NCBI GenBank assembly: GCA_040954595.2
Contig: CM082577.2
Coordinates: forward strand, 16,871,903-16,935,902
DNA: 64,000 nucleotides
Reading direction: 5' to 3'
DNA from: Balanoglossus misakiensis
Lineage: Eukaryota > Animalia > Hemichordata
Within the stretch, counting starts at the first letter, position 1. Each line of letters opens with the position of its first letter. The notes below the pieces were generated by a model. It saw only the letters and a list, made by a program, of their open reading frames with translations, did no database searches and was not told the DNA's origin. Position numbers and translations under genes: made by a program. This document shows positions 1,175-63,253 of this stretch, piece after piece.

Positions 1175-3629
1175 TTAAAACAGGAATAGGCGACTGGTGT
1201 TGTTGGCGGCGGCCTCCAGCAACTCTTCTGCCGCAACCCCTCGCACCTGGGCTGCTTCCCGAGCCACCTCACCCAGAAAAACAGGGGAGTTGAATCGCTG
1301 ACTCCCCCGCAGGGCTAGATGTGGGGCGTCCGTCTCCAACAGGATTCGGTCCTCGTGAACTTCCCTCAGCGCTTGGGCTTGGGCTTGTCGAAGCAGGCCA
1401 CGCTGGCAGAAAAGCTGAAATAGCAGTTCTGGAATGCCTGGGTCCATCTATTTAGGGTGCGTCTGTCCCCCCCCCCCCCCTGAAGGTGTGCAGCTGGATT
1501 GGTTGGGTTGAAGGGCAGGTTTCAGACACCAACATCAGGGCCAGGGCATGTACGTCACTGGCGTGTGGATCTCTCCTCGCGCCTCTGATGTGAAGCACGA
1601 TTAGTTTGTCTTCGGGTGCCACTTCCAACAGGCGTTGGAGGGCTTCCTCCTGCTGACCCCATTTCTGGACTGGTGCGGTCCTGTCCAGGCCTATCTCGCC
1701 CATGGCCGCTACCAGGGGGTGGGTTACTAGTCCCTTAATCCGCTGCAACAGCTCCTCTGTCATTTTCTTGGCCTTTTTGGGGTGAAGCCCAACCGCAACT
1801 TTCCACCCCGGCTCCCTTAGCAGGATCTTTGGATATTCTTCGGGGTCGCAATAAATCTCCACACCCCCCACCACTTCCACTGGCACTTCCGGCTCTCGCC
1901 CTGGCGACAATTGCAACAGTTCACGGGAAGTGGTGGCTCCTTCACTTTGGGGAGCCTTGGCTCTCATGCGGTCCGGGTGAAAATGAGCGTCTATAGCCTG
2001 GGGTAATCCCCCGGCTGGTGACGCCACACAGGGTCGGCTAACGTCTGGGCTTCCGGCGCTTGCTTGGGGCAGTTTCCCTCTGGGCCACTTCTTGATAGTC
2101 TCCTGTTCCTCCGGCGACAGGTCCCCAAGGAGCGTGAGAAGAATCCTCCAGTGAATCAGCACCGCTGGTGTGTTGGGCGGTGACAACCGTATCTTTTGGG
2201 GTACTTCCCATCCCATTCGGTGGCACACTCGTCTCATAATTTCTTCACCTTCCGGGAGAATTTTGGCTGTCGTCGGAAAACGTCCGAGGCCATGCGTCAA
2301 GAAGTAGTGGAAAAGGGCGACGATGGGCTGTTCCATCCCCACAAGAAGCTGGGTCAAGCCCCCTAGTAAGCCGACGCTTGCGTCTGGATCGGCTTTGCGA
2401 ATCTCTCCCCACATGTAGGATGGTAAGTGGCGCTTGTATACGTGCTCCTTCAGCCACTTGGAAGAATGTCCGCAATCCGGTATGGGGCAAGATGATTTCC
2501 CTGGAATCGGACAGTAGGATGTTTTCCCGCGGGGCTGTGGTCGTGGTGCCGCTGGGGCTTCCGCTGCTGGAGGCTCTCCCACTGTCCCCGAGAGGCCAGG
2601 TGGCCTCTCTGGGCTTGCTTTCTTGGGTGGCCTCCAAGGCTCATTCTCTGATGGCCTTTTCTCCGGTCTCTCCACCGATGCCGACACTCGGGAGCGGGAG
2701 CTTGCGGATCTCCAGCGCCGACTCGAACTGTTTTTCCCTTTCTTGCGCTTGGTGGTGGCTGTCGTGGACTCAGGGTGGCTCGGGCTTGGTGTATACCCCG
2801 CCGGTCTTAAGATTAACCGTCTGGGCGGTTCTTCCGTTTCTTCCGTTTCTTCCATCGCTTCGGCAGCCTTCGGATGCCCCGGCTCAGCACCTGGGCTTTC
2901 CGTAGTCTGCCGGAACTCGCTGCAGGTGATGGTACGGATGATGAGCCTTCGTGCCCCGACACTGAAATTCACGCCGAGCTCGTATGGCGATATGGGCATC
3001 TCCTCCACCTCACTCTCTTCCGACCGGCTCACGACCATGGAGACTTCTCTCCTATAAGGACTGGAGTCCCCTCACCGCTCAGTTGGGCCCTGTCCCCGCT
3101 CCAGAGAACCTGGGGAAACCCCTGGTCCCGCAGAGCTGGGCGGTGGACCCGATGAGCTGGGCGCACTCCACCCTCCGGATGCGACTTCCTGGGTTCCGCT
3201 GCCGGTTTCCAGGGTGCGTCGGACGGGTAAGTCTGGTTGCGTCAGTAAGCGGATGTCCCTACACATACCCCGCTCGGAATATTCCTCCGGCATCGCCATC
3301 GCCTTCTTGGGGCGTGGGGGCTGGTGGTCCTTCGCTGGGTTAATGTGCGGCATATTCTGGACGATCCAGGGGATTGGGAACATAACGTCCGCTTCCCGTT
3401 GGATAGTAAACACCCACCCCCAGTTCCCCTTGGATTTGGCTACCGCATATTGGTCTAGGAGTGCCTCTTGGGCTTCTCGCTTGGGGGCCATCATGATGCC
3501 GTGGATGACCTCTCTGGGGCTTAGAAGGCGGCGTGCCTGAGTGGCACTCCGGACATCCTCAATGGTTAGCTTGGGCATGGGTCTTGGCATATTGAATGGG
3601 GCTGGGTCTGTGGACATAAAGAAGAACAT
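1175..3629 (-). pseudogene. Retrotransposon ORF3: unknown N-terminal region, basic/Pro-rich linker, C2H2-like finger and TatD-family nuclease
   Basis: ORFs 3072-3722 and 1452-3038 are in the same frame, separated by one TGA (3072-3074). TatD motifs IDAHFH, AVGLHP, MGEIGLD, VLHIR, QLHTF, CYFSFS, RILLETDAP and NTSRLF occur in order, across frameshifts at the C14 run (1467-1480) and near 1385. CPIPDC-x9-H-x4-H lies at about 2428-2490. Confidence 0.88.
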
Positions 3630-3630
3630 G

Positions 3631-6600
3631 TTAGGCTTGTTGAGTGCACTGGGGGCAGAAATAGTCCCCCGTGCTTCCCTTTCCTGACTGAATTCCCACA
3701 CAGGACATATGGAACCAGTCAAAACACTTGTCGCATTGGATCATTGGGCTGCCATCGTTCGGTCCCCGACAAATGCAGTACTGGTCATTCCCTGGGCTTT
3801 CGGTTTCCCCCGTGTCGTTGGCTATGTTTGCCTGGTGCCTAACGATCCACTGGGGTAAGACCCGATCCCTACATAGTTTGATCCTGTCATGGTGCACAGT
3901 CATCTCTGCCCTTTTCAACCTCACTTTGTACAGGTATGGGGAGAATTTCCCAATGATCACGGCTGGGCCCTTCCAGGGGGGACTGAGCTTGCGACATTTC
4001 CACTTTTGTTGTGGCGGTATCTAAAATGTATACACAATCCCCCACCCCATAAGCTTTGGTGTGTGTTTTCAAATCATAGTCCCTTTTCATTCCTTCCTGG
4101 GTGGCCCTTAAGGTATTACGGGCGCTTTCATGGGCCGTGCTGATTGCTCTCTCCAATTCCCTAACATACCCCTCGGCCCTTTCCCCTTCATTGGAAAACT
4201 TGTCAGTGCTGTCTCTCCCCTGCCCTGTGGTCACCCCAAACACCAGATCTGCTGGCAAGTTAAGTTCCCTTCCCAACATTAAATGGTTTGGCGTGTATCC
4301 TGTGCTACGATTCACTGATGCGCGCATTGCCCCTGCTATCTGGGGTAGGTGTACATCCCACTCGCGCTGATTTCCGATGAAGCAACGCACTGCGTCCATG
4401 AGCGTACGGTTATTTCTTTCCGCCTGGCCATTCGCGGACGGTCTATAGGGGGTCGTTTTGCATTTGTGAATACGCAACAGCTCGCAAATCGCTACGAAAA
4501 GTTGGCTTTCGAAATTACGCCCCTGGTCGGTAAAGATCTCGAAAGGGTACCCGAAGCGCGCAAAGAATTCATTCACTGCTGCTTGGGCGGTGACCTCCGC
4601 CGTTTGTGACGGTAGTGGGATACACTCCACCCATTTTGAGAACTGATCGACCATCATCAGGATGTATTCGTTCCCCCCTTGTGTCTTGGGGAGGGGCCCG
4701 AGAAAGTCCAGATGGACTCGCTCCATGGGAGAACCTGCATGGAAACTTTTCATTTCTGCCCTGCCATACCGGTGGGTTTTCTTATTCTGACTACACTCTG
4801 AGCATGTGGCCACAAAATCCTTCACTTCCTCCTGCATTTTGTACCAGACGTATTTCTGTCTTATTCTGGACAAGGTCCGTTGGACACCTTGATGTCGGGC
4901 AGAGGGGATAGTGTGATTTAAGTCTATGACCACCTCTTTCATGTCTCGGGGGACCACAAATAATTTGTGGCCTGAGTCAATTTCCTCCCTCCATAGGACT
5001 CCATCAATCCACACAGAACAATTCCCGGTTCACCCAATAATTCTTGGCGGCTGGGCTTGATAGCATAAGTTTCCCTTCTAGGGGTTCTTTCCCTGTCTCT
5101 ACCCAATGTAATAAATTGCTAAGGTCTGGGTCTTTTTGTTGCATTTCCCGGAATTCGGCCATGCTTATCCCGACGATAGCGGTGCCCTCCTGCTTTTCAC
5201 TAGCACACGTTACTACATATGCTTTGGGCTTCCCCTGTTCTCTATCCCAACTCTGTTCAATATCAATGTGGGATTGAGGGGCTTCCAACCAATTTCCCTC
5301 ATGCACATTTTGGCCCTCGGATGACTCGCCTGGGTCCCAGGGCCAGGGTGGACAGTCACACCCCTGGGGAATTGGTGCGTCCCGGCCTGGGGATAAGGCT
5401 TCCCTCGGCGGAGGTTCTGCCCCTGGTGTGTCGCTGACCGTCTCCCCCTGCCCTATTGCCCTAGCTAAGGGGACCACATCGTCTACCTCATCGATGAAAA
5501 CACTCCATCTCAAGTGGGCCTTCTCACAGTAGCTACAACCCCCACAAGGAAGGTCTTGGGGGCTTATCCCATGGCTGAAATTGGAACATTGCTTGGGGTC
5601 TTGCACCCGTGAGAGTGCGTCGGCGTTTACATGTTTCTTCCCCGGGCGGTGCTCTACCTTCATGTCATATTGACTCAGCTCTTCAAGCCAACGAGCTAAC
5701 TGTCCCTGGGGTTCCTTGAAACTAAGCAGCCAAGTCAAACTGCTGTGGTCTGTTCTTAGTAGGAAACGCTTCCCTACCAAATAATGGCGATACTGCCGGG
5801 TAAACCTAATTACGGCCAACAGCTCTTGTCTAGTAGTGCAATACCAGCGCTGTTCAGGGGTCATGCTCACGCTGCCATACGCCACTACCCGTTCCCTACC
5901 ATCCTGCACCTGAATTAATTCTGCCCCAAGCGCATGATTTGACGCATCGGTATCTTATATGAATGGGTCTTCGTCGTTGGGCAAGGTCAGTACTGGTGGC
6001 GACATTAGCGCGGTCTTAATTTCTTCGAATGCGCGTTGCTGTTCGGGTCCCCATGCGTATGCCTGTTTCCCTGTGATTGCGTATAGGGGGGCGGCCATTT
6101 CTGCAAATCCCTTAATGAACGAACGATGGTAATTTGCAAGCCCTCCAGTTCGATGGAATTTTGCTTTACCCTGCGCCCAAGGAAAGTCACTTCAGTGCAG
6201 ATCAATTCGCATTTCCTTGGTTTTAACTTGAGCTGATAGTCACGCATGCGCTGGAAAACACCGCGCAAGTTCTGTAGATGGTGGTCAAAATCGGTCCCTA
6301 GTACCATAATGTCGTCCAAAAATGCGAGGACGACATCCCAGGTCAAACCCCGCAACACTAAATTCATTACCAGTGAGTAAGTGGCTGGGGCATTGCACAA
6401 CCCGAAGGGCATTCTAGTAAACTCGAAGAGCCCGTACTTGGTGACAAATGCAGTTTTCTTACAATCGGCGGGATCAACCCTCACCTGCCAATAGGCGGAG
6501 TTTGCGTCTAGTTTGGAGAACCAACGGTTTCCGGACAGCGTGTCCATGCAGTCTTCGATTAACGGAAGAGGGAACACGTCCTTAACCGTTTGGTTATTGA

Positions 6601-8059
6601 ACGCGCGATAGTCTACGCACCAACACACGCTGCCGTCGCGCTTGCGGACTAGAACAGGGGCAGATGCCCATTCCGATACGGAGGGCCGAATGACCTTTGC
6701 ATCAAACATTTTCTTCAAATGCGTTTCTTCCTCGCCTGCGAAACAACGCGGGGTGCGTCGCATCTTTTGTTTGACGGGTCTCGCGTCCCCAGTGTCAATG
6801 CGATGGCTAAGGGCGGTAAAGTTCCCAAGATCAAACTCATTGGCTGCAAACACGTCCTGGTAATCATTCAACAGCTCTTTAAGTTTGCCTGTCTCCCCCG
6901 AACTTAGATTTGTACATGATTTTTGGAACAAATCCTCTAAATGGCTGGGTACGTCTGGCTTGTCAGTTTCCCTTTTCCCCAGTGAGGCCTCAACTTTCTG
7001 GACAGTGATTTCTTCCGTTGTCCCAGGGGGCCCCACTCCCTCGACTTCTGATGCTGTTGCCACCAGCTTTCCCTTGCTAAGGGTGACTGATCTATCCGAT
7101 GGGTTAACTAAGCAAACTTTGGGCAACCGTCCCCCACTATTGACTGTCCTTGGCACTATCACCCGTAAATTCCCCACTGGCTCGATGATATACTCGGACA
7201 AAGGGCAATCCATCCCACAACGTACCCTTACTACTGAATTTGGGGGAATTCTAGTCCGTTTGGGCAACGTGACCTTTGCCACTTTCTTTTTTGTCCCTTC
7301 CCGACCATATGTCATGTGTACACTTTCACCCCCAAACCGCAACTGATTTCTTCGCATATCTAGGATCGCTCTCCTTGACCGCATAAAGTCTGCCCCTAGC
7401 AACATGTCGTCCCCTATCGGCGCTACATACACATCCTCTGTGAATTTGGTCCTTCCCAACTTCAGGCGCAAGGGACCTACTTTATGGGCTTTCATTTCCA
7501 TTTCCCGCCCTGCAGTTTGCATGATGGTGGTTTTGAGTACTGGGGGGCGGTTCCCAAGACGGCTATAGAGACGGTCTGAAATGATGGTGACTTCTGCTGC
7601 CGTGTCTACTACTGCCTGTACTTTAATCCCTTCGACTAAAATAGGTACACTATACATAGACCCTGACACTAACTGACATATGGTTATGGGCTGGGTGTCT
7701 TCACCGCTGGAGGTCTCGTTTGCTGTGGATTCATCAGTGTCCGAATTCGGGGAATCATACTCCTGTTCGTCCAAAGACTCCCCTGACGAGTTGTACTGTT
7801 CGTCGGTTCGAGTCTCCCTAGGGTGTAGATAGAACCCGTGCTCTTGCGATGTATCGTCAGCGTGGGTATCTAAAGTGGCCTGACACACTGACCCCCCTTC
7901 TTGGACTTTGGCACCACCCTTGGTGTCAGTGTGTGCTGTCACCCTGCCAATTTCATTTCCTCCCCCCTTTACTTTGGGACCATTTCCCTTGAGTATTGGG
8001 CCCTTTTGTGGCTTTTGGGTCAAACTTAGGCCCTCTGGTCTGACCCTTTCCCATTTAAA
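3631..8059 (-). pseudogene. pol: Pol polyprotein: aspartic protease, RT, RNase H, integrase and C-terminal PHD finger
   Basis: Protease VVDTAAEVTI; RT KLDANSAYWQ, RMPFGLCNAP and FLDD; RNase H DTDAS...TRQELLAV...RTDHSSL; integrase HHCC and HLDFLGP, FTDQGRNFES, NGQAERNNRT. Interrupted by a deletion/frameshift near 6140, a stop near 5956 and frameshifts near 5010 and 3990. Confidence 0.95.
7998..8059 (-). promoter_or_regulatory. Programmed -1 ribosomal frameshift signal (slippery heptamer plus pseudoknot)
   Basis: T TTA AAT in the gag frame at 8059-8053 slips into the pol frame (FKW). It is followed by a 6-nt spacer and the stem GGGTCAGAC/GTTTGACCC. Loop GGGCC is complementary to a downstream GGCCC. 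Confidence 0.8.
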
Positions 8060-10064
8060 TGCTCGGCGAATGTTACCCGCTTCTCCCTGGAATCTGAGGT
8101 TACTCTTTCCCTTCCCTTGGGGCATTCCCTATGTAAGTGTCCAGATTCCCCACAGTTAAAGCATTCCCGTCCCCTTTGGGAGGGTGACCGAGACCGGCCT
8201 GCCTCGCGTGGGGATAGGGCAACCACTGTCTTCCTCAAACTCTCTAAAGTTTTGACTACTTCAGTCATTTGTTCTCTAAGGGTATTTATCTCGCGACTGG
8301 GACTCTGGCTCGGGTTACGTGGGGTTCGAAACCTCCCCCGCGAGCCTGTTCTGCCGTCGGTGGGTGATAAAGCCTGATCTCTGGGGGGTCGCTCCCGAGC
8401 GGCTGATCGCACGCGTACAAATTCGCCGTCACTATCTGTCTCAGATGTTACTCGTTTTACTTCCCGACGCGAGATTCGGCGGCCGAAGATTTCGCGATTG
8501 TTATATTGAAACCAACGTATTTGGTCTATGGCTTCTTCCATGGAGGATACGCGTTGGTTAGCAACTGAAAGCCCTGCCTCGCGATCGGAGCATCCCTGAC
8601 AAAACTTCTTTATCGCCTGACGGTCCATAGCGCGCTCCGTCAGTTCAGGGAAAGCGTTTGCCGCGAGGGACAGGAGTCGATCGGCCCATTTTTCGAGTGA
8701 CTCCCCTTCTTTCTGATGGGACTGCTGAAATCTCATTTGCGCGGTTTCTTGTAGTTCTTGGTGCCCGAAACGCTTTTCAAGCTTACTGATCAGCCGCTGG
8801 TAGCTGATATTTTGCTCGCGCCTGAGTAGTGTCGAGTGAAATTCACTGGCGTCGCTGTCTAAGCAAAAACACAAGCAACATTTGCGTTCGCTCTCTGTCC
8901 AACCCTGGGCATCCGCGTAACTGGTGAATTTATCGAAAAACACGCCCACTTTCTCTCCCCAGTGCAAACTAACGTTTTGTAACGTATTAAACATCCTAGA
9001 GCCGAAGGCGGGCCCTTCCCTGCCCCACCTTGCCTCATGAACGAAGATTCACCATAAGGGTGGCTTGGCTGCACATTCCCATACGTCGGAGTCCAGGTGA
9101 CATTGGATGGGGCGTATGGGCTAGGACTGCTTCCCGCTTGAGAGGGTGGGCCATAGTACGTGGGATAGGGGATCCCCGGTACTGGAGGGGCGCCACCACG
9201 GTTTTCGGTGGGAAATCGCCAATCCCCGCGTTCGTAAGGGCTGGCTGCTGGGAGCGGTGTGGACCCCATCGGATATGGTGGCGGTGGGGTAAAATACCTT
9301 GGGAAGTTGTCTGGTGGATACGGTGGAGACACCCCAACCTGGTTCCCTGGGTAACGGCTTTGCTCTGTTGTGTGAAAATTATCCCTGTCTCGGGGTGCCC
9401 CATAATTTGGTGTTTGACCCCTGGGAATTATTGGTTCATGTTCTCCCCCTTCCCCTTCATTCGGGTCTGACCCTTCATGGCCATTATGTGAAAAACGGAC
9501 CCTACGCTGCAAAGCACTTCTGGGTTGGGTTCCAGGACCCCCCTCCCCATCACTGGCTCTACTTGATCCCCTGTGGTACTCACTTGCTGTGGAAGGGTAA
9601 CCCCCACTATCCAATTCTTGACGTTAGCCAATTTTCTCCCTTCCCTCGGGAAATGGGGTTGTCCTGGGCCTTGTACTATTCCCCCTTCCATACTCCAGTG
9701 ATAACTGATCAATTTTGCTAGCCAGCTCTGAAAGTGGGATTTCCGGTGGCCCCTGGAATTTCCCTGTTTTGCGTGCATTTCTGCGGGACGGTGTCTGCTG
9801 GTCCTCCTCACTACTGCTGCTGTAGGTATTTGAGTGGGTCAGGGCTGGAGGAAACTCAGCTTCCCTGATTTCATAGGACACCAATTCGTGAAAGTCTAGT
9901 GTGGGCCTGAAACAGGGGATTTCCCCTAGGATTTCTTTTGAGACCCTCCCGTATCTACTTCTGGCTCTCAAAATTGCCTTTGCCACTTTTTTTCCTACCC
10001 CTGGCAAGGTCTTAAGGGTCATGAAGTCACACGTATTAATATAGACTGGACCCTTGCAGGCCAT
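8026..10064 (-). pseudogene. gag: Gag: N-terminal helix-hairpin-helix, Pro-rich linker, capsid-like domain and CCHC knuckle
   Basis: ORFs 9624-10094 and 8859-9614 are in frame across one TAA, then frameshift near 8945 into 8026-8994. Knuckle CFNCGESGHLHREC; HhH motif INTCDFMTLKTLPGVGKKVAKAILRAR. Confidence 0.88.
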
Positions 10065-10628
10065 CGTGACGTGGTCTATTGGCCCTTTAAACAATCTAAT
10101 AACTAATTACCCACTCCCTTACACTCTACACAACACGTAGGATTTACACGAGTGAAGTCTTTTATTAACAAGAATAATCCTAACACACAAAAGCTCACTC
10201 CCACACAAAAGAAACTCGAATGCTTGCTAAAGAAAAGTTCTGCGCATGCGCCGAACGCCGCACTCCAAACACGTTTTTCGTAATGATGACCCCTCTAGCA
10301 ATAGAAATGGGCCCTATGTGCCAAGATGGCGGCCGAATTTCCGCCCACGCTGTTTTGGGAAAAAACGCAGAAAATTGGTTACAACTGCCTCCCAAACCCC
10401 GGTACCTACCCAGCACCGACTCTAAACTTTCCTCAAAAAATCCCCGCGGTCCCCGAGAGTTTGCCCAGTGTCCTTCTGCCCCGGCTATCCCCGATTTCCC
10501 GTTTTTTCCTAGCCCAGAAAAAAACCCACGTCTCACCCGGACGCAATCGCTGAATTCCGGCCACAGAAACACCACTCTCCCCCGCTTATCAAAGAAAACC
10601 CGTTTCCCCGCACAAAGTAGGAACACAG

Positions 10629-10641
10629 GCTCGCAGCGCCA
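10629..10641 (-). promoter_or_regulatory. Primer binding site, tRNA-Ser-like
   Basis: TGGCGCTGCGAGC starts 1 nt after the 5' LTR. It is complementary to a tRNA 3' end ...GCUCGCAGCG-CCA. The Ser assignment is from recalled tRNA acceptor stems and was not checked. Confidence 0.75.
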
Positions 10642-10642
10642 A

Positions 10643-10834
10643 TGTTGTGAAAGCTGATTTGCTCACCTTAGGTTATAATAAAGGATACTGAAGTTGTAGT
10701 TGGGTTGGTAATTTCGCTAGGAGGTCAGTAGAAGCGTGTTGCTCGTTGCTGCTCTCAAAGTAGAAGGGTCGAACTATTTCCGCCCAAGGGGTGAGTGGGG
10801 TCAGTGACGTCATCACGGATGTAGATTCACAACA
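10643..10834 (-). repeat. 5' LTR
   Basis: 192-bp copy of 611-802. It contains a TGACGTCA (CRE) palindrome, a GGGCGG box and a splice-donor-like AAG/GTGAGC. Confidence 0.97.
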
Positions 10835-11558
10835 GTACGTATACTCTACATTGTTATGCAAATTAGAGGTCAAACGTGAGGTGGCCATAGGTCAGGTGCT
10901 GGCTAGTATTACCCAGCACCTGTGGCCAGTGGCCAGGGCTGGCGTGATTTCACCCTCTAGCGGTGAAATACGCCCCAACTTTTGTTTATGTTGTAACTGT
11001 TGGTCTGTAGAATGAGCATGTTGCGTGCGTGACCGATGTTGCCCTACTGAGGTTTTAGGGTCAGTTCCCCACCTAGCGTGATCCACTGGCGTGGGGGTGT
11101 TCAGGCTAGAAAGGATTCGGGTAAGCGACAGACGTTTAATTTTTGTGTGGTGTATCCTTCATTTAATTTAATTCTTGGTTCTTTTAATTACATTTCAATT
11201 GATGAAGCATCGGAAGAAATTTCAATGATTTCGTCATCGTCGTCTAGAATATAGATTAATCGAGGTAATTTTATTGGTGCATTGTTGTCGTCATGTGTGT
11301 CGTCTTCATCACTGGGGGTATTTCCTCTTCCTGTGCATTGTTGTCTTGTTCGTCAGCTGCTGCAGGTTGTCTGGTAAATTCGTGTACTACTTTTTGGTTT
11401 AGGGGTAACAAAAACTAACCTATCCTAACAATTTACTTGCTCACCAAAGCAGCCGAAACAACTAGACTATATGCGAACAGCAAATCATAAAAATAGCGTC
11501 AAGGACACTGTGGTCCCATTTGAGGACATAGCACATAGCAACATAGCAATAAGCATAT

Positions 11559-12000
11559 CTGCTCTGGATGCCAAGATATGGAAAAGTAGGTCAAAGGTCA
11601 CCTGAGGTCATGCAACATTTGGGCAAGAAATTTTGACCCTATACTGGTCCATGTTCAATAAAAACCAAACCTATAGCCCTATTGGTTAGCCTGGAATTAG
11701 GTATGCACATAATTAATGAGATATGCAGGTGTCACAGGTGACCCCCAATTTTGGCTTTTCAATTTTAGTGCCAACCCTCCAAACGCCAAGTCTGTACCTG
11801 CTCTGGATGCCGAGATATGGTAAAGTAGGTCAAAGGTCACCTGAGGTCATGCAAAATTTGGGCAAGAAATTTTGACCCTATACTGGTCCATGTTCAACAA
11901 AAACCAAACCTACAGCCCAATTGGTTAGCCTGGAATTAGGTATGCACATAATTAATGAGGTAAGCAGGTGTTACAGGTGAGCCCAAAAATTTGCCTTTTA
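11559..12000. repeat. Two tandem copies of a ~239-bp unit of a dispersed repeat family
   Basis: CTGCTCTGGATGCC...AGGTCAAAGGTCACCTGAGG... starts at 11559 and again at 11798. Related sequence occurs in reverse orientation near 23271 and 24255. Confidence 0.85.
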
Positions 12001-12095
12001 TTTTTGCCCCGTTGTGCTCACTGACCAATAGACAGTCACTGTACAGGACTATTGCACAGACCAGAATTCCACAATAAGACGTGGACATAGCTTAA

Positions 12096-13081: not shown

Positions 13082-13299
13082 TTAACCATAGAGGTATAAG
13101 TAAAGGTATAAATTTAATAAAAAGACTAAAAAATTCATAAAAAATAAAACATCCATGATATCCACTGAACACTTACAGGTCGGTGTGAGGTTGACATAAG
13201 GTACATGCATACCTATTTTCAAAGCAATCTGACCAGTAATTGTTGACTTACAGAGTTTTGATCAATTTCACATTTTACAAGCTAATTTGCATATTTTTG

Positions 13300-15986
13300 G
13301 GCCTGGCAACTTGGAAGTGGCACCCGAAGACAAGCGTTATCAGTGACTAAGGCTGTGTTGTCCTCAGCATATTGCAACAGTTTAACTGAATGTGGATAAC
13401 CAGGAATGTTAAAGCCCTGACTTTTTTGCTCTGCCTGGATGACTGCGGCAAGCGGCTCAATAAACAAAATATAAAGGATAGGAGAAAGAGGACATCCCTG
13501 ACGGACACCCCTCGCATCATTCACAGGATCAGTGAGAAAACCGTTAACTAAGAACGAACTGGAAATATCAGTATAAAATATATGCACCCAGTCCTGAAAA
13601 ACTGGGCCGAAATAAAATTTCAAAAGAACTCTGTGCCAAAACGTCCAGTCAACTGTATCGAAGGCCTTTCGCTGGTCCAGCGAAATGACAGCACCCTGAC
13701 TACCACGTGTGTTACAACGATAGATAAAGTCATGAACAATATGTAAATTATCAACGATGGACCGACCCTTGACCCCACAGGTCTGCAATGGGTTAATAAT
13801 GTCAGGTAAAACGGAACTAAGGCGATTACATAATACTTTGGCGATAATCTTCACATTCAAAAGAGAAATTGGGTGCATGTTCTCAGGCCGATATGGTCCC
13901 TCAACATCTTCAACAGAAGAGGACTTACTCAAAAGGGTAACAATGGCCAACCTCTGTGACCCCCCCCCCCCCAAAAAAAAAAAAAAAAACGTTTTTCGGC
14001 CAGGATAATATTGCATACCTGAAGATAGATGGAGCCAATAAAGTCCCATAGCCAAAGATAAAATTCCTTCTTGAACCCATCGGACCCCGGGGCTTTACCA
14101 TTCTTCATACTCTTCAATGTGGAGGTCAATTCCTCCAAAGTAAAGGGGCGTCCAAACAAGCCTACTGCTGCTTATCTAACGACCTCTCTAGCTTAGAAAA
14201 AAAATCCTGTATTGGGTGTGTCTGATTCTGACAAAAGACTGGAAAAATAATTACGGATGACTGAAGAAATGCCCTCTTGCTCCGTGTGCACTTTCCCTTC
14301 TTCGCCAAACAAACTGGACAAACTCTTGTTGCAGCTCTCGTGCGCTCACGCGCAAAGAAAAAACGCGAACATTTTTCGTTGTGCTCCTGCCAAAGCGCAC
14401 GAGAGCGGATCTTAGCACCTGCAAGTTTCTCCTACGTGAGCTTGTTAATACGATCTTTAATGGCGTTATAACTATTGATAATGAAGCGGGAATGCTTTCC
14501 TGAGTTTAGAGACGATGTTATGTCTTGTAGCTGCGTAAACAAGGAAGAGAGCAGAAATTTCTTCTTACGAGCAACTCGCCGGGAGTGTTTTTAACAACGG
14601 CCTTTATACGTGTCTTTACCATGTCCCACCAATGGGACAAATATGGGAAAGCCTCCTGCAGGGTGACCCAATGGGAGATGTGTTACCGGATTTCGTCAAC
14701 GACCGAGGGATCAGTCAAAATTGAGAGATTACACTTCCAGACACCTTGGCCTCTGCGAGGCACCTGACCGCCTCTTAAACACACCGTACACATGTCATGG
14801 TCAGACATAGAGCAAGGAACAATACTGGACGAGGTTTTAAACGCACCAGACATGTAAAAACGATCAAGACGACTACCAACCGAACAAGAACGATTACGCC
14901 ATGTATATTCGTGTAGGTTTTCATGCTGACAGCGCCAAACATCAAACAAGCCGTAATCAGTACATAACTTAAAGGCACATAAGCTGCAACTTTTGGGATA
15001 ATTGTCATAATTTTTGTTTCAAAGTCTACTACCATTAGTCTATGCATATGAAGGCAGTGAACTATACACAAACATTATAAACCCTAAATATGAGTGCATA
15101 TGCAAGTTTTAACCAGATAAATAATAAAGCTTTACCGCAAGCGATTATGGCCGTCACCGTGGGAAACTGCCAGAAACAATGAAAATATTGCATTTCCGGT
15201 TATGAAACTTCGTTCATAAACAAAACATGATCTCATCCACTTGAGCTCATGGAAGTAAATGTACACTGCTGAAACATTATATTTTCCTTTTTCATTGCAA
15301 TATTGCACTTTTCTAAAAATTGCAGGAATTTTCGTTTTTCTTTAATTTTTGGCCATTTTGTCATAAATAAGTGTTGAGCTTGATATATTATCATGAAATA
15401 TCATTTAATAGATCTAATTAAAAGCATATATGAGATTATTTAAAACTTTATTTTGTTATCCAGTTGCAGCTCATGTGCCTTTAATATGCAGAACTTCACT
15501 ACCCATGAAGCAGGTTGTATTCGAAGCGGACCCCCCAAACGGATCAACAGGAGAAGAAACACAATTAAAGTCACCACCCAAAATAATATTGCTATGGCTA
15601 CCGATGAAATCAGATAAACCGGAAAAGAAATTAATCCTACCTGAAGGACTATTAGGCGCATACACATTAACTAAACGGCAAGGAAAGGAACTTCAAGAGA
15701 CAGTACCCGCCACCAGACGCCCATCCACATCTGAAGTAAAATCCTGCAGGGAAAAACCCGATGACGGAGAGATCAAAATGCCCACTCCCCTGCTGCTATT
15801 GGACCAAGCTCCAATAATTGGGGCCTCGCCACTCCCTTCCCACATTGCCATCTCACTAGAAGAACTACAATGAGTCTCCTGCAAAAAGATAATATCAAAC
15901 TTACTGTCTCTAAACGAAGCGAATAAAGAGTTACGCTTAACAGAATCCTTCAAGCCATTAACATTAATGGAACATAAATTCAACAT
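13300..15986 (-). mobile_element. Decayed Tx1/L1-clade LINE ORF2 (APE endonuclease plus RT), truncated after the YADD-type motif
   Basis: SINVNGL, IFLQETH, VYAPN, ILGGDFNC, SRLDRFY, SDHD, KAPGSDG, PISLLN, SLDQRKAFD, GVRQGCPLSP and QYAED in order, with many frameshifts. Confidence 0.92.
14973..15480. mobile_element. 508-bp MITE with TTAA TSD (Kolobok-like) inserted in the LINE endonuclease
   Basis: 19-bp TIR AGGCACATAAGCTGCAACT (1 mismatch). Removing the element and one TTAA restores the frame SEVLHIKLCTDYGLFDVWR. Confidence 0.92.
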
Positions 15987-20364: not shown

Positions 20365-23300
20365 GTGCTGCGGCGGACAGTGTTCGGTTGGTGAACGGAG
20401 CCAACAAATATGAAGGAAGGGTAGAAGTATATCGCCCTGAAGCTGGTTGGACGCCCGTCTGTCTGTGGATGTGGGATTTGCTTCGCGCAAACATTCTTTG
20501 CCGGGAACTGGGTGAGGATGCATGCCCATGTAAAGGGGCAAACGGTCTATTCTGAGCAATAATATATCGTCATTGTTTCAAATATGTATACCAAATTGTG
20601 ATTCTGTGGCAATTTCCCATCCAGTTGACGATCAGTCGATGTTAGTGCGTAAATAGTTTGGACTGTCGGAAATCAATCTGTTTTAACACAATTGGAATGT
20701 AGAATTTCGGTTGAGTTTTATAGCTATATATCAGTATTCTTACGTATTATGCACAGTTAACCACTAAAAGAGAGGGTATATGAGTTAACTATATACACAC
20801 CACCTATGTGAACATGTCAATGTTATTTTTTGTGTTTGTGGTTTCGTCATATGTCAAACATGTCAAGTTTTGAAGGCCGTTTATGAAAATTATCATATGC
20901 CTATATTCACGTGCCCATGTAAAGTCTATGGGGAAAAGCGCCCTCACATCCATGCAGTTTTTTTGCTTATCACGCCCCGGCCCGGTGACCATATTTGGAA
21001 GACGCGTTCAATATCCGGATCTAGTTTTGTGTTTATTGCGCGAGATTCGAAAGTTGTTGTTGCTACGTTCTGAATTAAATTTTTCTGGTGCGGTGTCAGT
21101 GACTAGTGCACTTGCAGTGTGTGTATGTCCTATGCCGCTACCGAATCCCATCATCTCCCGTAATCGCTGCATGTTGTAGAGCTTTATTTGGAAATATGAA
21201 TAGTAAAATTGATGATTTGATCTGATTAATGTGTGACTGTCGGCGTCGATCGTCGCGAAGAAAAAATAATGTTTTGCTCGCGCTCGGCTCTGTGAGTTCG
21301 AGCGCGTCTATATCTCACGTGCAATAGAATGTAAACAAATGACATCGTGCATATCAATCCGCAAGAACTGGAGGAATGCGCCTCTATGCTACGGGATAGA
21401 TCATTTCAAAACGATAGATAAACACGTAATATTTACATTCCAAAATATTACAGAATGTGTATTTTATTAGTTTCTTGTAGATTATCGTTCAATAAGGCAT
21501 ATGATAAAACCTTTACGGCCCTGATACGGGTTTTGCGGCCCTCGGTCGTACGGCGATTCGCGCCCTCCCTGCGGTCGGGCGCTTCCGCCGTACGACCTCG
21601 GGCCGCAAAACCCGTATCAGGGCCGTAAAGATTAGAATTATATACAAGTCTAATGAATACCGAGAATAAAAATATAACTAAAATAGTATTAGAGGGGTCG
21701 GTTTCACATCTTCACTTGCAGGACGGCCAGGTGCCATGTTAAATGGTGCATCGTTTACAGTCTTCGTCGGCGATGGCCGTCCACGCATAGTAATAACTAG
21801 TTGCGACGAAACTGAAGACTCCATAGCCAACTGTGAATACCGTGAATTATTACCGGATTGTCCTAATTCAGCGACAGCAAAGTGTAATTGTAAGTATGAC
21901 GTAGACTATATGTGACAATCGAAGTGTGACACGTGACGTAAATGTGACTCATGACACTGTGATATTCATTTGTAACATGATCTCCGTACAGTTGTAATGG
22001 AATCCGGTTTTGTAACTTGATGCTTCGCTTGAAACTTAAGTAAATTCCTATGCCAAAGAAACTTTATCATTCAACGCCTTTATATTTTTATAATTATCAA
22101 AGAGTGTGAACCATGTAACTATCAATGAATACCAGATTTTACAGAAATTACATGCATTATGTTTAGAGACATCTAAATGTGTTGAACATACGTTGCTATT
22201 TCCCATGGAATTTTAACACATTTACAGTTTGCCTGCTCCTCCAAGCGGACACCCTATGCAGGGCAGAACTGAGAAGTAAACAAAAACTGGGGGGGGGGGT
22301 GAATTGGGATTTGGAGGGATTGTGCCATAGCGTCATACGTTTTCAATTCTTAGGGACCGTTCAGTTTTTACGGCCGGGGGGCCCGGCAAAATCCAGGGGG
22401 GGGGGGTTAGGGTCACTTAAATTTTGAAGTCCACAAGGGGGGGGGGTCATCTGGTTTTTTTAAACGTTTAGGGGGGGTCACATACTTTTGCCACCGAACT
22501 TTTGCTTTTGAGTCCACAAAATTGCAGTTTCGCACCCTTTATTTTACAAAATTTCTAATGTGGGAGGGGGACACCCCCTCCCACACCCATCCCCTTCATT
22601 CTCCGCCGCATTTCATTTTTGCTGGTTTGTCTAGTGTACCAGGGCAGAGTGCTTGCCACCCCAACCCCACCGATGATAATATTTAACAAAGTGAATACAT
22701 AAAGGAGGATAATTGTTTAAACCATTATTCATAACTGATAGTTTCGCTCTGCATCTTCTATATACTAGAAGTTTTATAAATGATGTCATGACAAGATGAC
22801 GCCAAATCTTCTAACTTTGAGTGGAGTGGCAAAAAGTAAAATTTGTCTTCCCTAACATTGAGTAAATTTGCTTTTGAGTTCATTAAATTGCAACTTTGAG
22901 CACCGTATTTTGCAAAAATTTCTTATGTGGGAGGGGGACACCCCTGTTGCCGTTCAAATGTTTCTATCTAGACCCGGCTACACTGGTTAACATTCAATGT
23001 AATGCGGCAGCGGACTTTGACCCTCAGTCGCTAATGTGGCCGAAATACGTCAGCAGACCAATGATTTTCTTGCACGAAGGGAGTATGGTACCAGCAATAA
23101 TCAGAGATCAGGCTTCTTTGCCGTTCAACAGTTCCTACTTCAGTCGTGACGTTGCAACTGAACGTTCAGTATGGGGGTTGGCCCGCAGGTAGCCGTGGGG
23201 GTTATCAGGTCGCCCGTAATGGCACGCAGCTTCATGCAGCTGTATGGGACCAAAATAATACGCCCGATTCGGGGGTCACCTGTGACACCTGCGTAACTCA

Positions 23301-34773: not shown

Positions 34774-35302
34774 GCAATAACCCCGCCGCAGGCGGGTATA
34801 CACGAGATTTGGGTACAATTCGAGAGGGTACAATTCGAGGAGCGAATTGTACCCAAATCGAGTGTATACCCGACTGAGGCGGGGTTATTGCTATTATATT
34901 ACATCAACTTACAATTGTTTTTGTTGCATATCATTGTCATTTTCTTACCGAAACGGCGTCAGAAAGAGAAATTACGATCGTGGACCAACATGGCAACGAT
35001 GGATGTAAACACGAGGGGCCGGGATCGAGCATTAAATATGAAGCAGACGACAAAAAGTGACAAGACGGGCATCGCGCGTTGCAAAGTGACACATATTTCC
35101 AGAGTGCAGTTTCAAAATAAAACGTTCGTTAATTCAACAGAATTTTAATTTTATTTATTTGCGACTGTGGTTTAATCGCACATTTTGCTGCCACATGCTG
35201 GTTCAGGGGCCCGTTTTAGCAGTGCTATATTGATTATTTTAGCATCGCTGGATTGAGCTCTCGTACAATCATAATGGTGGACGTTAGCATGATATAATAT
35301 AA
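34774..35302 (-). mobile_element. Hairpin-ended non-autonomous element, homologous to 61688-62257
   Basis: Terminal hairpin GCAATAACCCCGCC...GGCGGGGTTATTGC. The body is the diverged reverse complement of 61688-62110. Confidence 0.8.
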
Positions 35303-35692
35303 TATACAATTTTGTAATGTCATTGCATCAGTTAATAAATGATATGTCTTAAGGCTATGAACATACTATGTGAATACGTTCCATCTCATTTGCATAGCAT
35401 GGGTTCTTGCGTGATGCGCGCGATTTCGTCATAGTTCTCGCGTGATTCCAAAAATTGTATATTTGACATCGATATTTTTACTTCCAGGTTTACGAAGCTC
35501 TAAACAGTTTAGGGTCGGCGGGTTAAATTAGGGTAGGTCGGGTAATCGGAACAGCAAATATTTTTTTTATTTGGCCATATGATGAAAAATGAGCGTGGAT
35601 ATTATCCCGATTCCAAATAATTTAATCAATGAGATGGTGCTAACTGCAAAGTTGGAAATACAAAGCTAACTGCACACTGCAAACAATGCTGC

Positions 35693-45914: not shown

Positions 45915-46763
45915 TTAGATGATTGAAATTACATAATGTTATCTATAGAATGAAAGCTTCAGTAACTGTAAAGCAGTAGCCTTTTGCATGTTATTTGGGG
46001 CATTTGTTCTACGTTTCAACTACATATCATGGACATGTTTAAATACACCTAAAGTCGCCTCAAGTTCACAGCTAATGTAAACCATGGGCGTACACGTGTA
46101 TATACAACCTGCACAGTTATTCGGAACAAGTGGGTGACCTCTTTACACGTGGGCGCATTTGCCGCGCATATCAAAACGGCGCACCTATAACATTAGCTGC
46201 AGTGCCATAAGTCGAAGATTGGCCATGTTTAGGGGTGATTGCACGGCACTACACCTCAGCTCAGCATCAGGATAAACCTCGGTCTATGTTATTATCATCG
46301 AGCCTCTTTTTACCCGGCAGTTCTCGGGCAACCACAGGCAGTAATTACTAGGACCCAGCAACTATACTGTACTCATAACATATGTTCGTGGTCATTTCAC
46401 GTTGCAATTGTAGAAACGCAGTCATGCACAGCGTCAAAAACACGTACGTAAGTTACAGGTAGGCTTTCTAGAAGGGATAGTGTGTATAGAGCTCGATCAA
46501 AGGGCATAGTTTCACTGGGACATGCTAATTGTACGGTGGAAGTCATATGAACGGTTGTTTTTTGTGAGAGCGTTCGGAGGTATAGACTGAAGGACAATCT
46601 GAAAGCACGCGTGGGGTAAATAAACGGGCATTGGTATTTAGTGTGACCCTTCAAATCTTTGACAAATGTTGAAAAGAAAAAACCTGTCTAGTGTTGCCAT
46701 AGATCTGCGTGGTCCACTGTCAAAAGCGCGTGTGTACTCTCAACTTGAAAATTAGAAAGGCTG

Positions 46764-47006
46764 ACATACATACATACATACATACATACATACATACATA
46801 CATACATACATACATACATACATACATACATACATACATACATACATACATACATACATACATACATACATACATACATACATACATACATACATACATA
46901 CATACATACATACATACATACATACATACATACATACATACATACATACATACATACATACATACATACATACATACATACATACATACATACATACATA
47001 CATACA
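46764..47006. repeat. (ACAT)n microsatellite, about 60 units
   Basis: Read directly from the sequence. Confidence 0.99.
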
Positions 47007-47880
47007 CACACACACATACACACAAAGAAATGATGTACACACATGAGCTAATAAGGTGTGGAAAGTATATACAGGATAGGCCATTAATTCTGTTCAACGA
47101 TTTTATTGTACATAGTATCATCAGGGTGCAAAATTCAATCGAGATTATCTGGTGCTGTACTGACTTGTGATGACAGAAACAAAGGACCCCAAATACATTA
47201 CAATTAATGTTTATCCCTTGAATCTAAAGAGAACTGCATGCTGCCTGTATGACTGTTACCTATGATGACGTGTGACTTTATTATTGTTAGTCCGCAGTTA
47301 ATGACCAGCCATGGTTTTTTTATTCTTGTGACCGGAGGTGTTACTAAAATTGGAAACTCTTCGTCTGTATACCAGAGACATTATACATGTATGTACATTG
47401 TACACTGTTTTTCTATTAGCACTGAAATGATTCCTATTGGAATAACACGTGTCAAATAGTATAGGTAACAAAATAACCTCTGACTAAACTAGTATCTTAG
47501 CAGATCTTCTTCACCCACTTTTGTCTTCTTCCTATCAAGAAATAAAGATGTGAAGTTATCACCAGTCACAGTAAATAAACGACATAACATGACATTACAT
47601 CGCTGCATGAACCTGTGTTGATGAGCAGTTCACTTAAATGATCTCGAATGTCAGCTCGTCTCACCGCTAAACACAGCAGGTTCAGTTTTGATCAAAAGCA
47701 GTCACCCTACTTAAAGTGAGATGCTACATATCGAATGATTAGAAATTGAGTTTCGACAAGTCACTTGTTTATATTCTATCCGTGTATAGATTTGTTTATA
47801 TGTGATGTATTTGGGGGCAGGCACAGTTTTTAAAGGCGGTGGGCACCTATGTGACACACCTTGACTCTCTGTAAGAGCTT

Positions 47881-60784: not shown

Positions 60785-61098
60785 TATATTATACCAGTAT
60801 ATTGATGGTGTAAATCACGCTATTTGATTGGTCGAGACACGACACGTGACCGTGATATATTAGCCATATACCACAGTCATATATCATAGTCAAAGAAAAT
60901 GCCTTTTTAAAATGTTTTATGCAAAGTTTCAATAAACTGGCATAATATAATAGCAATAAAACACCCCCAGCCATGGTATACCACTCGATTTTGACCAGTT
61001 CAACTCCATATACGCACTCGCTAACGCTCGTGCGTATATGTCGTGAACTGGTCAAAATCTCGTGGTATACCATGGCTGGAGGTGTTTTATTGCTTAAA
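60785..61098 (+). mobile_element. Short hairpin-ended element
   Basis: TGATTGG motif near 60826 and a ~145-bp hairpin AGCAATAAAACACC...GGTGTTTTATTGCT at 60951-61094. Confidence 0.75.
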
Positions 61099-61687
61099 TA
61101 AATAATAGCATTCGCAGATATGATTATAAAAAATAACTCTCCTGATATACACCCTGTAATTTAATTTCAAGAAGTGAAACTTACTTCCCCCAAATGTTGT
61201 ATTCTCTGAATGCCCATATTATTCAAGAATGGAACCACAGCTAATTGAATTGTTATTTATTTATTTTCAGAACGTCTTCTGGACCAGTCGTGTACTATGT
61301 TGGACGAGCAGTAGCACAGTCTTCGTTCAACAGCGTTTCATGAAGCAACCGTCCTCATGACATCACATGGAGAAGTTGGCCTGTCTATTACATATTAAAA
61401 TGTGAACACCGTATAAACGCGGGCGCACATCATGTACACACATCCATGTTAATGGAAAGTAGAAAATCGCCTATAGGAAAAAGTCAACACACGCCGAGTT
61501 TAGCAATTTCTTGATGCAAGACGAGCAGTAGTGTGGTTTTCTTGTGATTGTACATCTTTGTGAACGTGCCATATTACTTGTAGTCAAAACTTTAGGACAT
61601 TGAAGGTCGTGCATTTCATTATTGAGAACGGCGATGCCAATTACCCATAGTGTTTAGCACAAGTCGATCTTAGAGGATAATTAGCAT

Positions 61688-62257
61688 TATATTATATCAT
61701 GCTACCGTCCGCGATTCTGATTGGACGAGAGCGATGGTAAAATACTGTTTTACCACTGCTGGCAGTGGTAAAACGGGCCCCTGAACTAGCATGCAGCAGG
61801 GAAATGTGCAGTCAAACCACAGTCGCGTGGGGTTAAACTAAACAAATAAATAAACATGGTGTTGAATTGACGGACGATTTGTTCTAGAACTTCTCTGTTG
61901 GGAATATTTGGTATTTTGTTTTGCCCGATGCCTGTCTTGTCACTTTTTGTCGCCTGCTTCATGTTTAATGCTCGGTCCCGGGCGCTCGTGTTTACAATTA
62001 TCGTCACCATGTTGATTCGCGATCGTAACTTCTTTTTCTAAAAAAAAATTCGTTAAAAAAATAAGAAAATGACACCGATATGCCACAAAATCAATTGTTG
62101 GAATAATATAATAGCAATAACCCCTGTCTCAGTCTGGTATACACTCGATTTGGGTACAATTCGCTCCATATAGCACTCGCCTAACGGCTCGTGCTACATG
62201 TCTCGAATTGTACCAATATCTCGTGTATACCCGCCTGCGGCGGGGGTTATTGCTTAA
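61688..62257 (+). mobile_element. Hairpin-ended non-autonomous element, homologous to 34774-35302
   Basis: TCTGATTGGACGAG near the 5' end and a terminal hairpin at about 62113-62254 with loop CACTCGCCTAACGGCTCGTG. Confidence 0.8.
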
Positions 62258-63253
62258 ATATATAATGCTGTAAAACTGTGAAAGGTTGACAGACAAACCG
62301 ATAGATAACACACAAAAGAAAACAAAAGAATTGTTACACTAAATTTCTTCTTTTTGAAGCTTTCTACGTAATAATATTTTTGTACATTACTTAATGCACA
62401 AAACTATGACCATTTGCACCAAACATCGGGCGGACTAATGTTATCCCTTTCCGTGTGTCATGAGCAAATATACATGTGCGCATGACGTCATACTGTTACA
62501 TGTATGCTGAAGACAGTACAGCTACGTATTACCGATACTTCAACAACTTTTTATGAATCTGGAAAGAAGATGACTATCTCCATAATTTAATTTTCACTTT
62601 TATAGCGAATCGTTGCAAGTGCTATATGAGTGAGATTATTTTAATTAAGTATTATCACTTGAATGTTTCACTTGATATACTATTTACCTGAAAAGTGTCA
62701 TACTATTGGTATGTTGCTTTTCCACGGGAAGGTCAATATCTGGTTAGATTTTGATGGGCATAACACGCAAAATATGACGCAAAATCAATTTGTATAATTA
62801 AAAACTTTGGGTCTAAAAATTGTCATTTTCAAAATGTCATGATCATTAGGTATTTCCTGGACAACAAAATTATCTTAAAGTGTGAATATATCAGCGATTG
62901 CTTGATAACAGTCAGGCGAGTTGTTCATTTCTATAACCATCGGTAATCAGTCCATCTTTATTCATTGGTTGCAGCCTGGGTTTAATATAATGTATTGTAG
63001 TCTGGGGGTGGCGGGCCGGCAACAGGATTGGTACTGCAAAGCAACGAAGGAACAAGACACTATAAGTGAGTGTTTAGAAAACTTGCTCCCAGTCAAAAAT
63101 ATTACGGGTGCCATTCACCGATGTTATAAGATGTAATGGACAAATAAGCAGCTTTGTCAATAATTATTTTAATGTGTACATTTCAATATTATTGGTGACA
63201 TTTCAATTTTTGTCCAGGCAAAATTTCAATAGTCATCAACAACGACAACATTG

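Follow-up and report, generated by a model that had tools for sequence, protein, structure and literature searches.

The window, as we call the whole 64,000-nucleotide stretch of Balanoglossus misakiensis DNA that was analysed (contig CM082577.2), carries on its minus strand a 10.2-kb Ty3/Gypsy LTR retrotransposon. Unless stated otherwise, the features given below by window position lie on this strand. The 192-nt 5' LTR (10643-10834) and the 3' LTR (611-802) both have TG...CA ends, are identical at 189 of 192 nucleotides (3 differences) and are enclosed by the left (607-610) and right (10835-10838) copies of a 4-bp target-site duplication, to which no strand is assigned. A splice-donor-like site is found within the 5' LTR at 10666, a primer-binding-site-like stretch beginning with TGG just inside it (10629-10641), and a polypurine tract before the 3' LTR (803-814). 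The gag gene (8026-10064), split into several broken frames, matches in Pfam an N-terminal helix-hairpin-helix, a PNMA/Retrotrans_gag capsid and a CCHC knuckle. The pol gene (3631-8128, stop at 3631-3633) shows the Pfam order PR-RT-RNaseH-INT-PHD and contains three frame changes with respect to an intact relative. The LTR ends, the target-site duplication, the primer-binding site, the polypurine tract and the order PR-RT-RNaseH-INT all agree with membership of Ty3/Gypsy. The helix-hairpin-helix at the Gag N-terminus (9627-10064) and the PHD finger at the integrase C-terminus (3634-3790) recur in relatives and may be marks of the clade. Elsewhere in the window we recognised by eye a fragment resembling a non-LTR reverse transcriptase (13282-14094, minus strand), together with a direct repeat that has a 239-bp spacing, several long inverted repeats of hairpin-like (MITE-like) form and an 8-bp tandem array; these direct, inverted and tandem repeats occupy 11556-12005, 21508-21633, 34774-35303, 60952-61094, 61686-62261 and 46692-47055.

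A third reading frame, ORF3 (1175-3590, about 805 codons), separates the pol stop from the 3' LTR. The first-pass annotation had placed here an ORF of about 815 codons starting at 3629. Its position stands, and its start probably does not: the ATG at 3629 sits in the pyrimidine tract of a conserved acceptor-like site, so that translation probably begins at 3590. As had been described, three lesions break the frame: an in-frame stop at 3072-3074, a frame change near 1476-1488 and another near 1381-1402. Because pol is broken as well as ORF3, the window copy is dead throughout. The encoded protein begins with an all-helical domain kept in relatives (3300-3581), followed by a basic, low-complexity linker with a KRKKGK stretch (2733-2750) that is a possible nuclear signal or nucleic-acid-binding segment, by a C2H2-like finger (C-x-x-C..H..H) joined to a helical domain with a conserved PAxLxHW-type motif (2064-2498), and by a class II (HxH) TatD TIM-barrel (1178-2006). 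The finger and the KRKKGK stretch were both recovered as reported earlier, and so were all the TatD motifs: DAHFH, GEIGLD, LHIR, LHTF and ETDAP. Scanned separately, the two TatD-bearing pieces both exceeded the gathering cut-off of 27 of Pfam TatD_DNase (PF01026), with 54.4 bits (E 1.5e-14) for 1452-3068 and 46.5 bits (E 4e-12) for 1178-1447. The statement that the ORF is as GC-rich as gag-pol had to be corrected: ORF3 is richer, at 0.587, the values for pol, gag and the flank being 0.50-0.51, 0.52 and 0.395, respectively.

Contigs from two sequencing runs, all derived from one DNA sample, cover 30 of the 30 bins of the window element with many variants, none of them spanning the whole element. 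This shows that the window element belongs to a multicopy family. Within the frame at 1452-3071, four of the six differences listed fall on third codon positions, a number too small to use. The summed contig depth of the 5' half (7164-10400) is much above that of the pol core, and one contig joins positions 795-957, 1611-1652 and 1773-1825; these two observations hint at internally deleted derivatives in this species.

Relatives were detected by protein searches in Ptychodera flava, Pinctada imbricata, Elysia crispata, Ostrea edulis and further assemblies. Several of them cluster at 90% identity with 6, 28 and 125 members, located on different contigs where these are listed. The relatives in the named species are known from proteins alone, and genomic context was taken from separate scans of loci. 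A full search of representatives returned 928 clusters within E 0.001 and, within E 1e-10, 357 clusters (50% identity), part of the latter having been checked as element-borne. All 49 relatives scanned pass the TatD_DNase cut-off, and TatD_DNase was the only domain found in the Pfam scan of their proteins. Among the best 150 proteins, the finger-helical domain is present in 80 of the 83 that have at least 200 residues before TatD. One Pinctada gene model (P0004) consists of a sulfatase fused to an element TatD, probably a mis-prediction spanning an insertion.

Genomic context was examined from both directions; the first-pass annotation had suggested asking whether TatD matches in other genomes lie between integrase and an LTR. 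Starting from TatD, 81 loci were collected, one of them viral and the others the best 80 among 237 confirmed stretches of metagenome sequence; 30 of the 81 contain the finger-helical domain. An INT or PHD domain was found upstream on the same strand in 15 of the 15 finger-type loci with at least 2.5 kb of upstream sequence, and in 1 of 24 TatD loci without the finger-helical domain. Two further loci, L014 and L029, were missed by the motif pattern and stand outside the count of 15; in each of them INT, or its C-terminal/PHD portion, lies upstream. Locus L032 has an element-type TatD, yet no pol match in its 3.8 kb of upstream sequence. Starting from the integrase, 16 loci were selected: the finger-helical domain and TatD follow downstream in all 11 with at least 2.6 kb of downstream sequence, a twelfth, for which 1 kb is available, contains the N-domain, and four are too short. 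These 11 positives come from one set of assemblies, the integrase query was itself derived from families with TatD, and among the 16 loci 7 overlap with families encountered earlier, so that host sampling is narrow. The synteny is seen from both directions. Terminal direct repeats flank gag-pol-TatD in L082, L085 and L094, three open ORFs are present in each of L008 and L020, and many relatives have an open ORF3 of 630-1100 aa. No TatD-integrase fusion was detected among the 49 long relatives or the 6 matches of a longer-protein search. The viral contigs searched yielded one phage TatD and no integrase relatives.

Some of these loci deserve a separate description. L082-L097 are animal-type Gypsy elements whose records bear the titles of bacterial metagenome-assembled genomes (Sedimenticola in 13 of the 16), most likely through contamination by host DNA. 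A circular 6.5-kb contig (L014, 933-6318) encodes an intact HhH-Gag, a protease, an INT C-terminus/PHD and an intact ORF3 of 755 codons, without RT, RNase H or INT core; it is possibly a non-autonomous derivative retaining the nuclease, and could be a mis-assembly. L064 (2107-3549) and L039 (164-1618) hold TatD ORFs that are very divergent and match the finger-helical domain weakly; the one in L064 also lies behind an integrase.

The conservation of ORF3 was quantified at several levels. An alignment that combined 150 representatives with 12 loci, slightly overlapping, comprised 162 rows; 126 rows span the six metal or catalytic residues H, H, E, H, H and D, and all six are intact in 112 of them. 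Across the loci compared, TatD identity has a median of 38%. For dN/dS, a calculation already suggested by the first-pass annotation, we took the 14 closest TatD pairs, of which 12 were unsaturated; 11 of these gave values of 0.08-0.46, indicating purifying selection, and the remaining pair gave 0.93. For the pair L002/L018, dN/dS was 0.10 for TatD, 0.17 for the finger-helical domain, 0.13 for the N-domain and 0.06 for INT. Identities of INT and TatD were correlated across 18 loci (rho 0.57, 147 pairs, 0 of 5000 permutations), as expected if ORF3 travelled with pol. The proposal of a lineage of Gypsy elements bearing a TatD ORF in the env slot is therefore upheld by the TatD profile, the two-way synteny, the open ORFs, the selection and the co-divergence with INT. 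At the level of sequence comparison, TatD ORF3 is confirmed as a conserved third gene across a widespread Gypsy group in marine invertebrates.

ORF3 is no envelope gene. No membrane-like segment was found by hydropathy scan in any of 14 full ORF3s (peak 19-residue hydropathy 1.03-1.77), which rules out an env of errantivirus type, and none of the 10 ORF3s checked has a strongly hydrophobic N-terminus. In 8 of 9 full ORF3s, clusters of basic residues lie ahead of the finger. Both domains accompanying TatD fold with high confidence in structure models (pLDDT 92.6 for the N-terminal helical domain and 91.3 for the finger-helical domain). Neither had a significant match in Pfam or the PDB, nor did the finger-helical domain in BFVD. 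Their best structural Z-scores were 3.6 (rmsd 4.2, 88 aligned) and 7.4 (rmsd 4.2, 93 aligned), Foldseek returned no E below 0.001, and the best ESM Atlas cosine for the finger-helical domain, 0.82, is at chance level; these negatives fall short of establishing new folds.

The junction between pol and ORF3 contains a branch-point-like motif, a pyrimidine tract and an AG (3608-3634), a predicted splice acceptor for an ORF3 mRNA whose position is conserved across families. In the window the acceptor AG occupies 3609-3608, and the ATG that follows it is the one at 3590. Over 19 loci, the mean best acceptor score after the pol stop was 13.3 against a null of 10.9 +/- 0.4 (0 of 5000), the score being an ad hoc one set after viewing three examples and the null consisting of draws from integrase (coding) DNA. 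An ATG lies within 20 nt past the acceptor in 17 of the 19 loci, and in 10 of 12 it is in frame with the N-domain; the same close ATG is seen in 10 of the 12 integrase-selected loci with ORF3 sequence. Primer sites and donors were also sought in the 19 relatives, where too few sites were found for a comparison of donors. From these DNA signals it is predicted, and likely, that ORF3 is translated from a spliced sub-genomic mRNA.

The element TatD carries the N-terminal HxH and the E, H, H, E and D active-site residues of class II, as this class is defined in PMC10085689 and PMC10711561, and the HxH motif is common to TATDN2, TATDN3, YcfH and YjjV (PMC10085689). The element TatD profile scored a median of 186 bits on core TATDN2 against 96 on a small sample of bacterial TatDs, and human TATDN3 and TATDN1 reached 37 and 32 bits, respectively, on an element profile. 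Conversely, the TATDN2 profile was preferred by 19 of 24 element rows and not by the other 5. The best PDB sequence matches of the element TatD are YcfH-type. The scores favour a placement nearest to TATDN2 among the TatDs profiled. Two quick trees resolved the element TatDs as one fast-evolving clade outside the sponge-to-fish TATDN2 proteins, whose animal clade has SH-aLRT support of 95-98; these trees comprise three groups, with TATDN1/3 absent, and cannot by themselves show sisterhood to TATDN2 or name a donor. Pinctada and Elysia also possess ordinary TATDN2 proteins, which fall in a clade separate from the element TatDs. A CDP motif with fixed spacing occurs in 19 of 24 elements, 4 of 24 core TATDN2 proteins and 0 of 15 bacterial ones. 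Since the element TatDs form a separate and fast-evolving clade, their substrate preference may differ from that of TATDN2. A TATDN2-like subclade (P0009, P0201 and P0203) that includes sea-star proteins has the element-type CP-x-P-x-C..H..H finger and groups with TATDN2; it may be another mobile lineage or may be related to the donor.

Directly observed are where ORF3 lies, its conservation along with pol, the intact residues of its active site, a layout of three domains and the acceptor-like site. ORF3 of this lineage might encode a nuclear TATDN2-like RNase, made from a spliced message and clearing R-loops on the element's own DNA. We favour this reading tentatively and recognise that it may well prove wrong. 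It is drawn by analogy with TATDN2, the nearest characterised relative, which acts on R-loops. On R-loops, the human enzyme degrades the RNA strand starting at its 3' end; its activity is minimal when the substrate is a plain RNA:DNA duplex, and DNase activity was not appreciable (PMC10711561). This preference speaks for a nuclear R-loop role over the trimming of cDNA or the clearing of cytosolic DNA. It requires the glutamates of GE-x-G and E-T-D, both kept in the element TatDs, and a long disordered N-terminus for binding (PMC10711561). Moreover, Tatdn2 is reported to protect primordial germ cells (PMC12709183). The message would arise by splicing between a donor located in the 5' LTR or the leader and the acceptor after the pol stop; the protein would be imported into the nucleus via its basic linker, would bind nucleic acid through the linker and the finger-helical domain, and would remove the RNA strand from the 3' side in a metal-dependent manner. 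The element would benefit from full-length transcription or integration without R-loop damage in the host germ line.

Other activities can be envisaged for the same gene. The nuclease might act on DNA intermediates, by 3'-5' trimming of cDNA ends or flaps, or as an AP endonuclease in gap repair after integration or on uracil-damaged cDNA. TATDN1, TATDN3 and the bacterial TatDs are DNA exonucleases and AP endonucleases, AP-endonuclease activity being found in the class II TATDN3, YcfH and YjjV and 3' exonuclease activity also in TATDN3 (PMC10085689); the YcfH-type PDB matches, the helix-hairpin-helix of Gag and the PHD finger of INT point the same way. We nevertheless regard a DNA substrate as rather unlikely: the element profile is nearer to TATDN2, for which no appreciable DNase activity was seen (PMC10711561), ORF3 is unfused to Pol and likely on a separate message, and one circular contig (L014) keeps an intact ORF3 without RT, RNase H or INT core. 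The separate and likely spliced nature of this accessory gene would suit an anti-silencing protein that degrades or shields small RNAs or nascent transcripts of piRNA-type surveillance, or an RNA-regulatory protein that aids nuclear exit of the full-length RNA. Cer1 provides a precedent for the latter with its spliced accessory protein CERV, on which export of the genomic RNA depends (PMC10309623), TATDN2 cuts hairpin RNA too (PMC10711561), a silencing role has been raised for the DEDDy ORF3 of other retrotransposons (PMC5408684), and two conserved non-catalytic domains suggest partners. This is in our view unlikely, as those two domains match no known silencing or export factor in Pfam and fold searches and an RNase would endanger the element's own RNA.

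The location of ORF3 in the env slot behind an env-like acceptor also raises the idea that it removes cytosolic or extracellular DNA, dodging innate sensing or extracellular traps and substituting for env in cell-to-cell spread. TatDs of Plasmodium and trypanosomes do hydrolyse extracellular traps (PMC10085689). We hold this improbable for proteins with neither a membrane-like segment (14 of 14) nor a strongly hydrophobic N-terminus (10 checked) and mostly with basic clusters before the finger (8 of 9). Finally, ORF3 could stem from a host TATDN2 mRNA that a single copy or family captured recently and neutrally, a reading consistent with the broken ORF3 of the window copy and with the similar layout of host TATDN2 (PMC10711561). 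This is scarcely credible, given that the pol of the window copy is broken too, that the gene is open in many families with a median TatD identity of 38%, purifying selection and INT co-divergence, and that the ordinary TATDN2 proteins of Pinctada and Elysia fall in a separate clade. A one-off capture is refuted by the synteny, the intact residues, the dN/dS values and the integrase-selected loci.

Accessory genes reveal what limits a retroelement in its host. The long conservation of a nuclease with intact catalytic residues in place of env suggests that, in animal germ lines, the replication of LTR retrotransposons or their evasion of defences includes a step that has gone unrecognised. It is possible, although on the doubtful side, that these elements constitute an old, species-rich invertebrate Ty3/Gypsy clade in which an obligatory spliced gene combines two domains of undescribed fold with an active TATDN2-like nuclease. 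If so, they would be the first mobile elements known to bring an enzyme of their own for resolving R-loops, and hundreds of genes annotated as 'TatD/TATDN2-like' in molluscs, hemichordates and echinoderms would belong to transposons. In any event, multicopy 'TatD' genes in invertebrate annotations should be read with caution, as they may be transposon cargo. The lineage also yields two domains that are well folded in models and have no known match, together with a large natural set of TATDN2-like enzymes. Our literature search, the scope of which left out Repbase, GyDB, Dfam, most subscription journals and supplements, where such an arrangement may be recorded, found no paper on a TatD-bearing retrotransposon; matches for squid and wrasse were discarded as incidental gene names.

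The env of retroviruses and errantiviruses is an accessory gene made from a spliced message. ORF3 shares with it the slot after pol and, by prediction, the spliced message, and differs from it by having an enzyme domain and no membrane segment or envelope domain. By its description, CERV of the C. elegans element Cer1 (PMC10309623) is likewise comparable as a spliced accessory gene, splicing of ORF3 being predicted. A nuclease as retrotransposon ORF3 is already known: the Juno and Vesta LTR retrotransposons of bdelloid rotifers encode a DEDDy 3'-5' exonuclease in this position (PMC5408684), in a paper whose main text does not contain the term 'TatD'. Both systems are LTR retrotransposons with a non-env enzymatic ORF3 that has intact catalytic residues, no membrane domain and an unproven function (PMC5408684). 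The nuclease folds, however, are unrelated, a TIM-barrel TatD here and an RNase H-like DEDDy there; the present elements have two extra conserved domains, are spread across molluscs and hemichordates and show clear purifying selection, whereas no significant within-genome departure from neutrality was reported for Juno and Vesta (PMC5408684). With animal TATDN2, ORF3 shares the class II HxH, the catalytic glutamates and aspartate (PMC10711561, PMC10085689) and a C-terminal nuclease following a long disordered N-terminal region (PMC10711561). Unlike animal TATDN2, the element proteins form a separate clade, are multicopy and have no internal introns where DNA was seen, and they add to core TATDN2 the N-terminal helical and finger-helical domains, for which a weak partial match was found in 4 of 120 TATDN2-like proteins. 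QatD of the anti-phage system QatABCD is another class II TatD-like nuclease engaged in genetic conflict (PMC13434339); it serves bacterial host defence, whereas ORF3 is the cargo of a selfish element.
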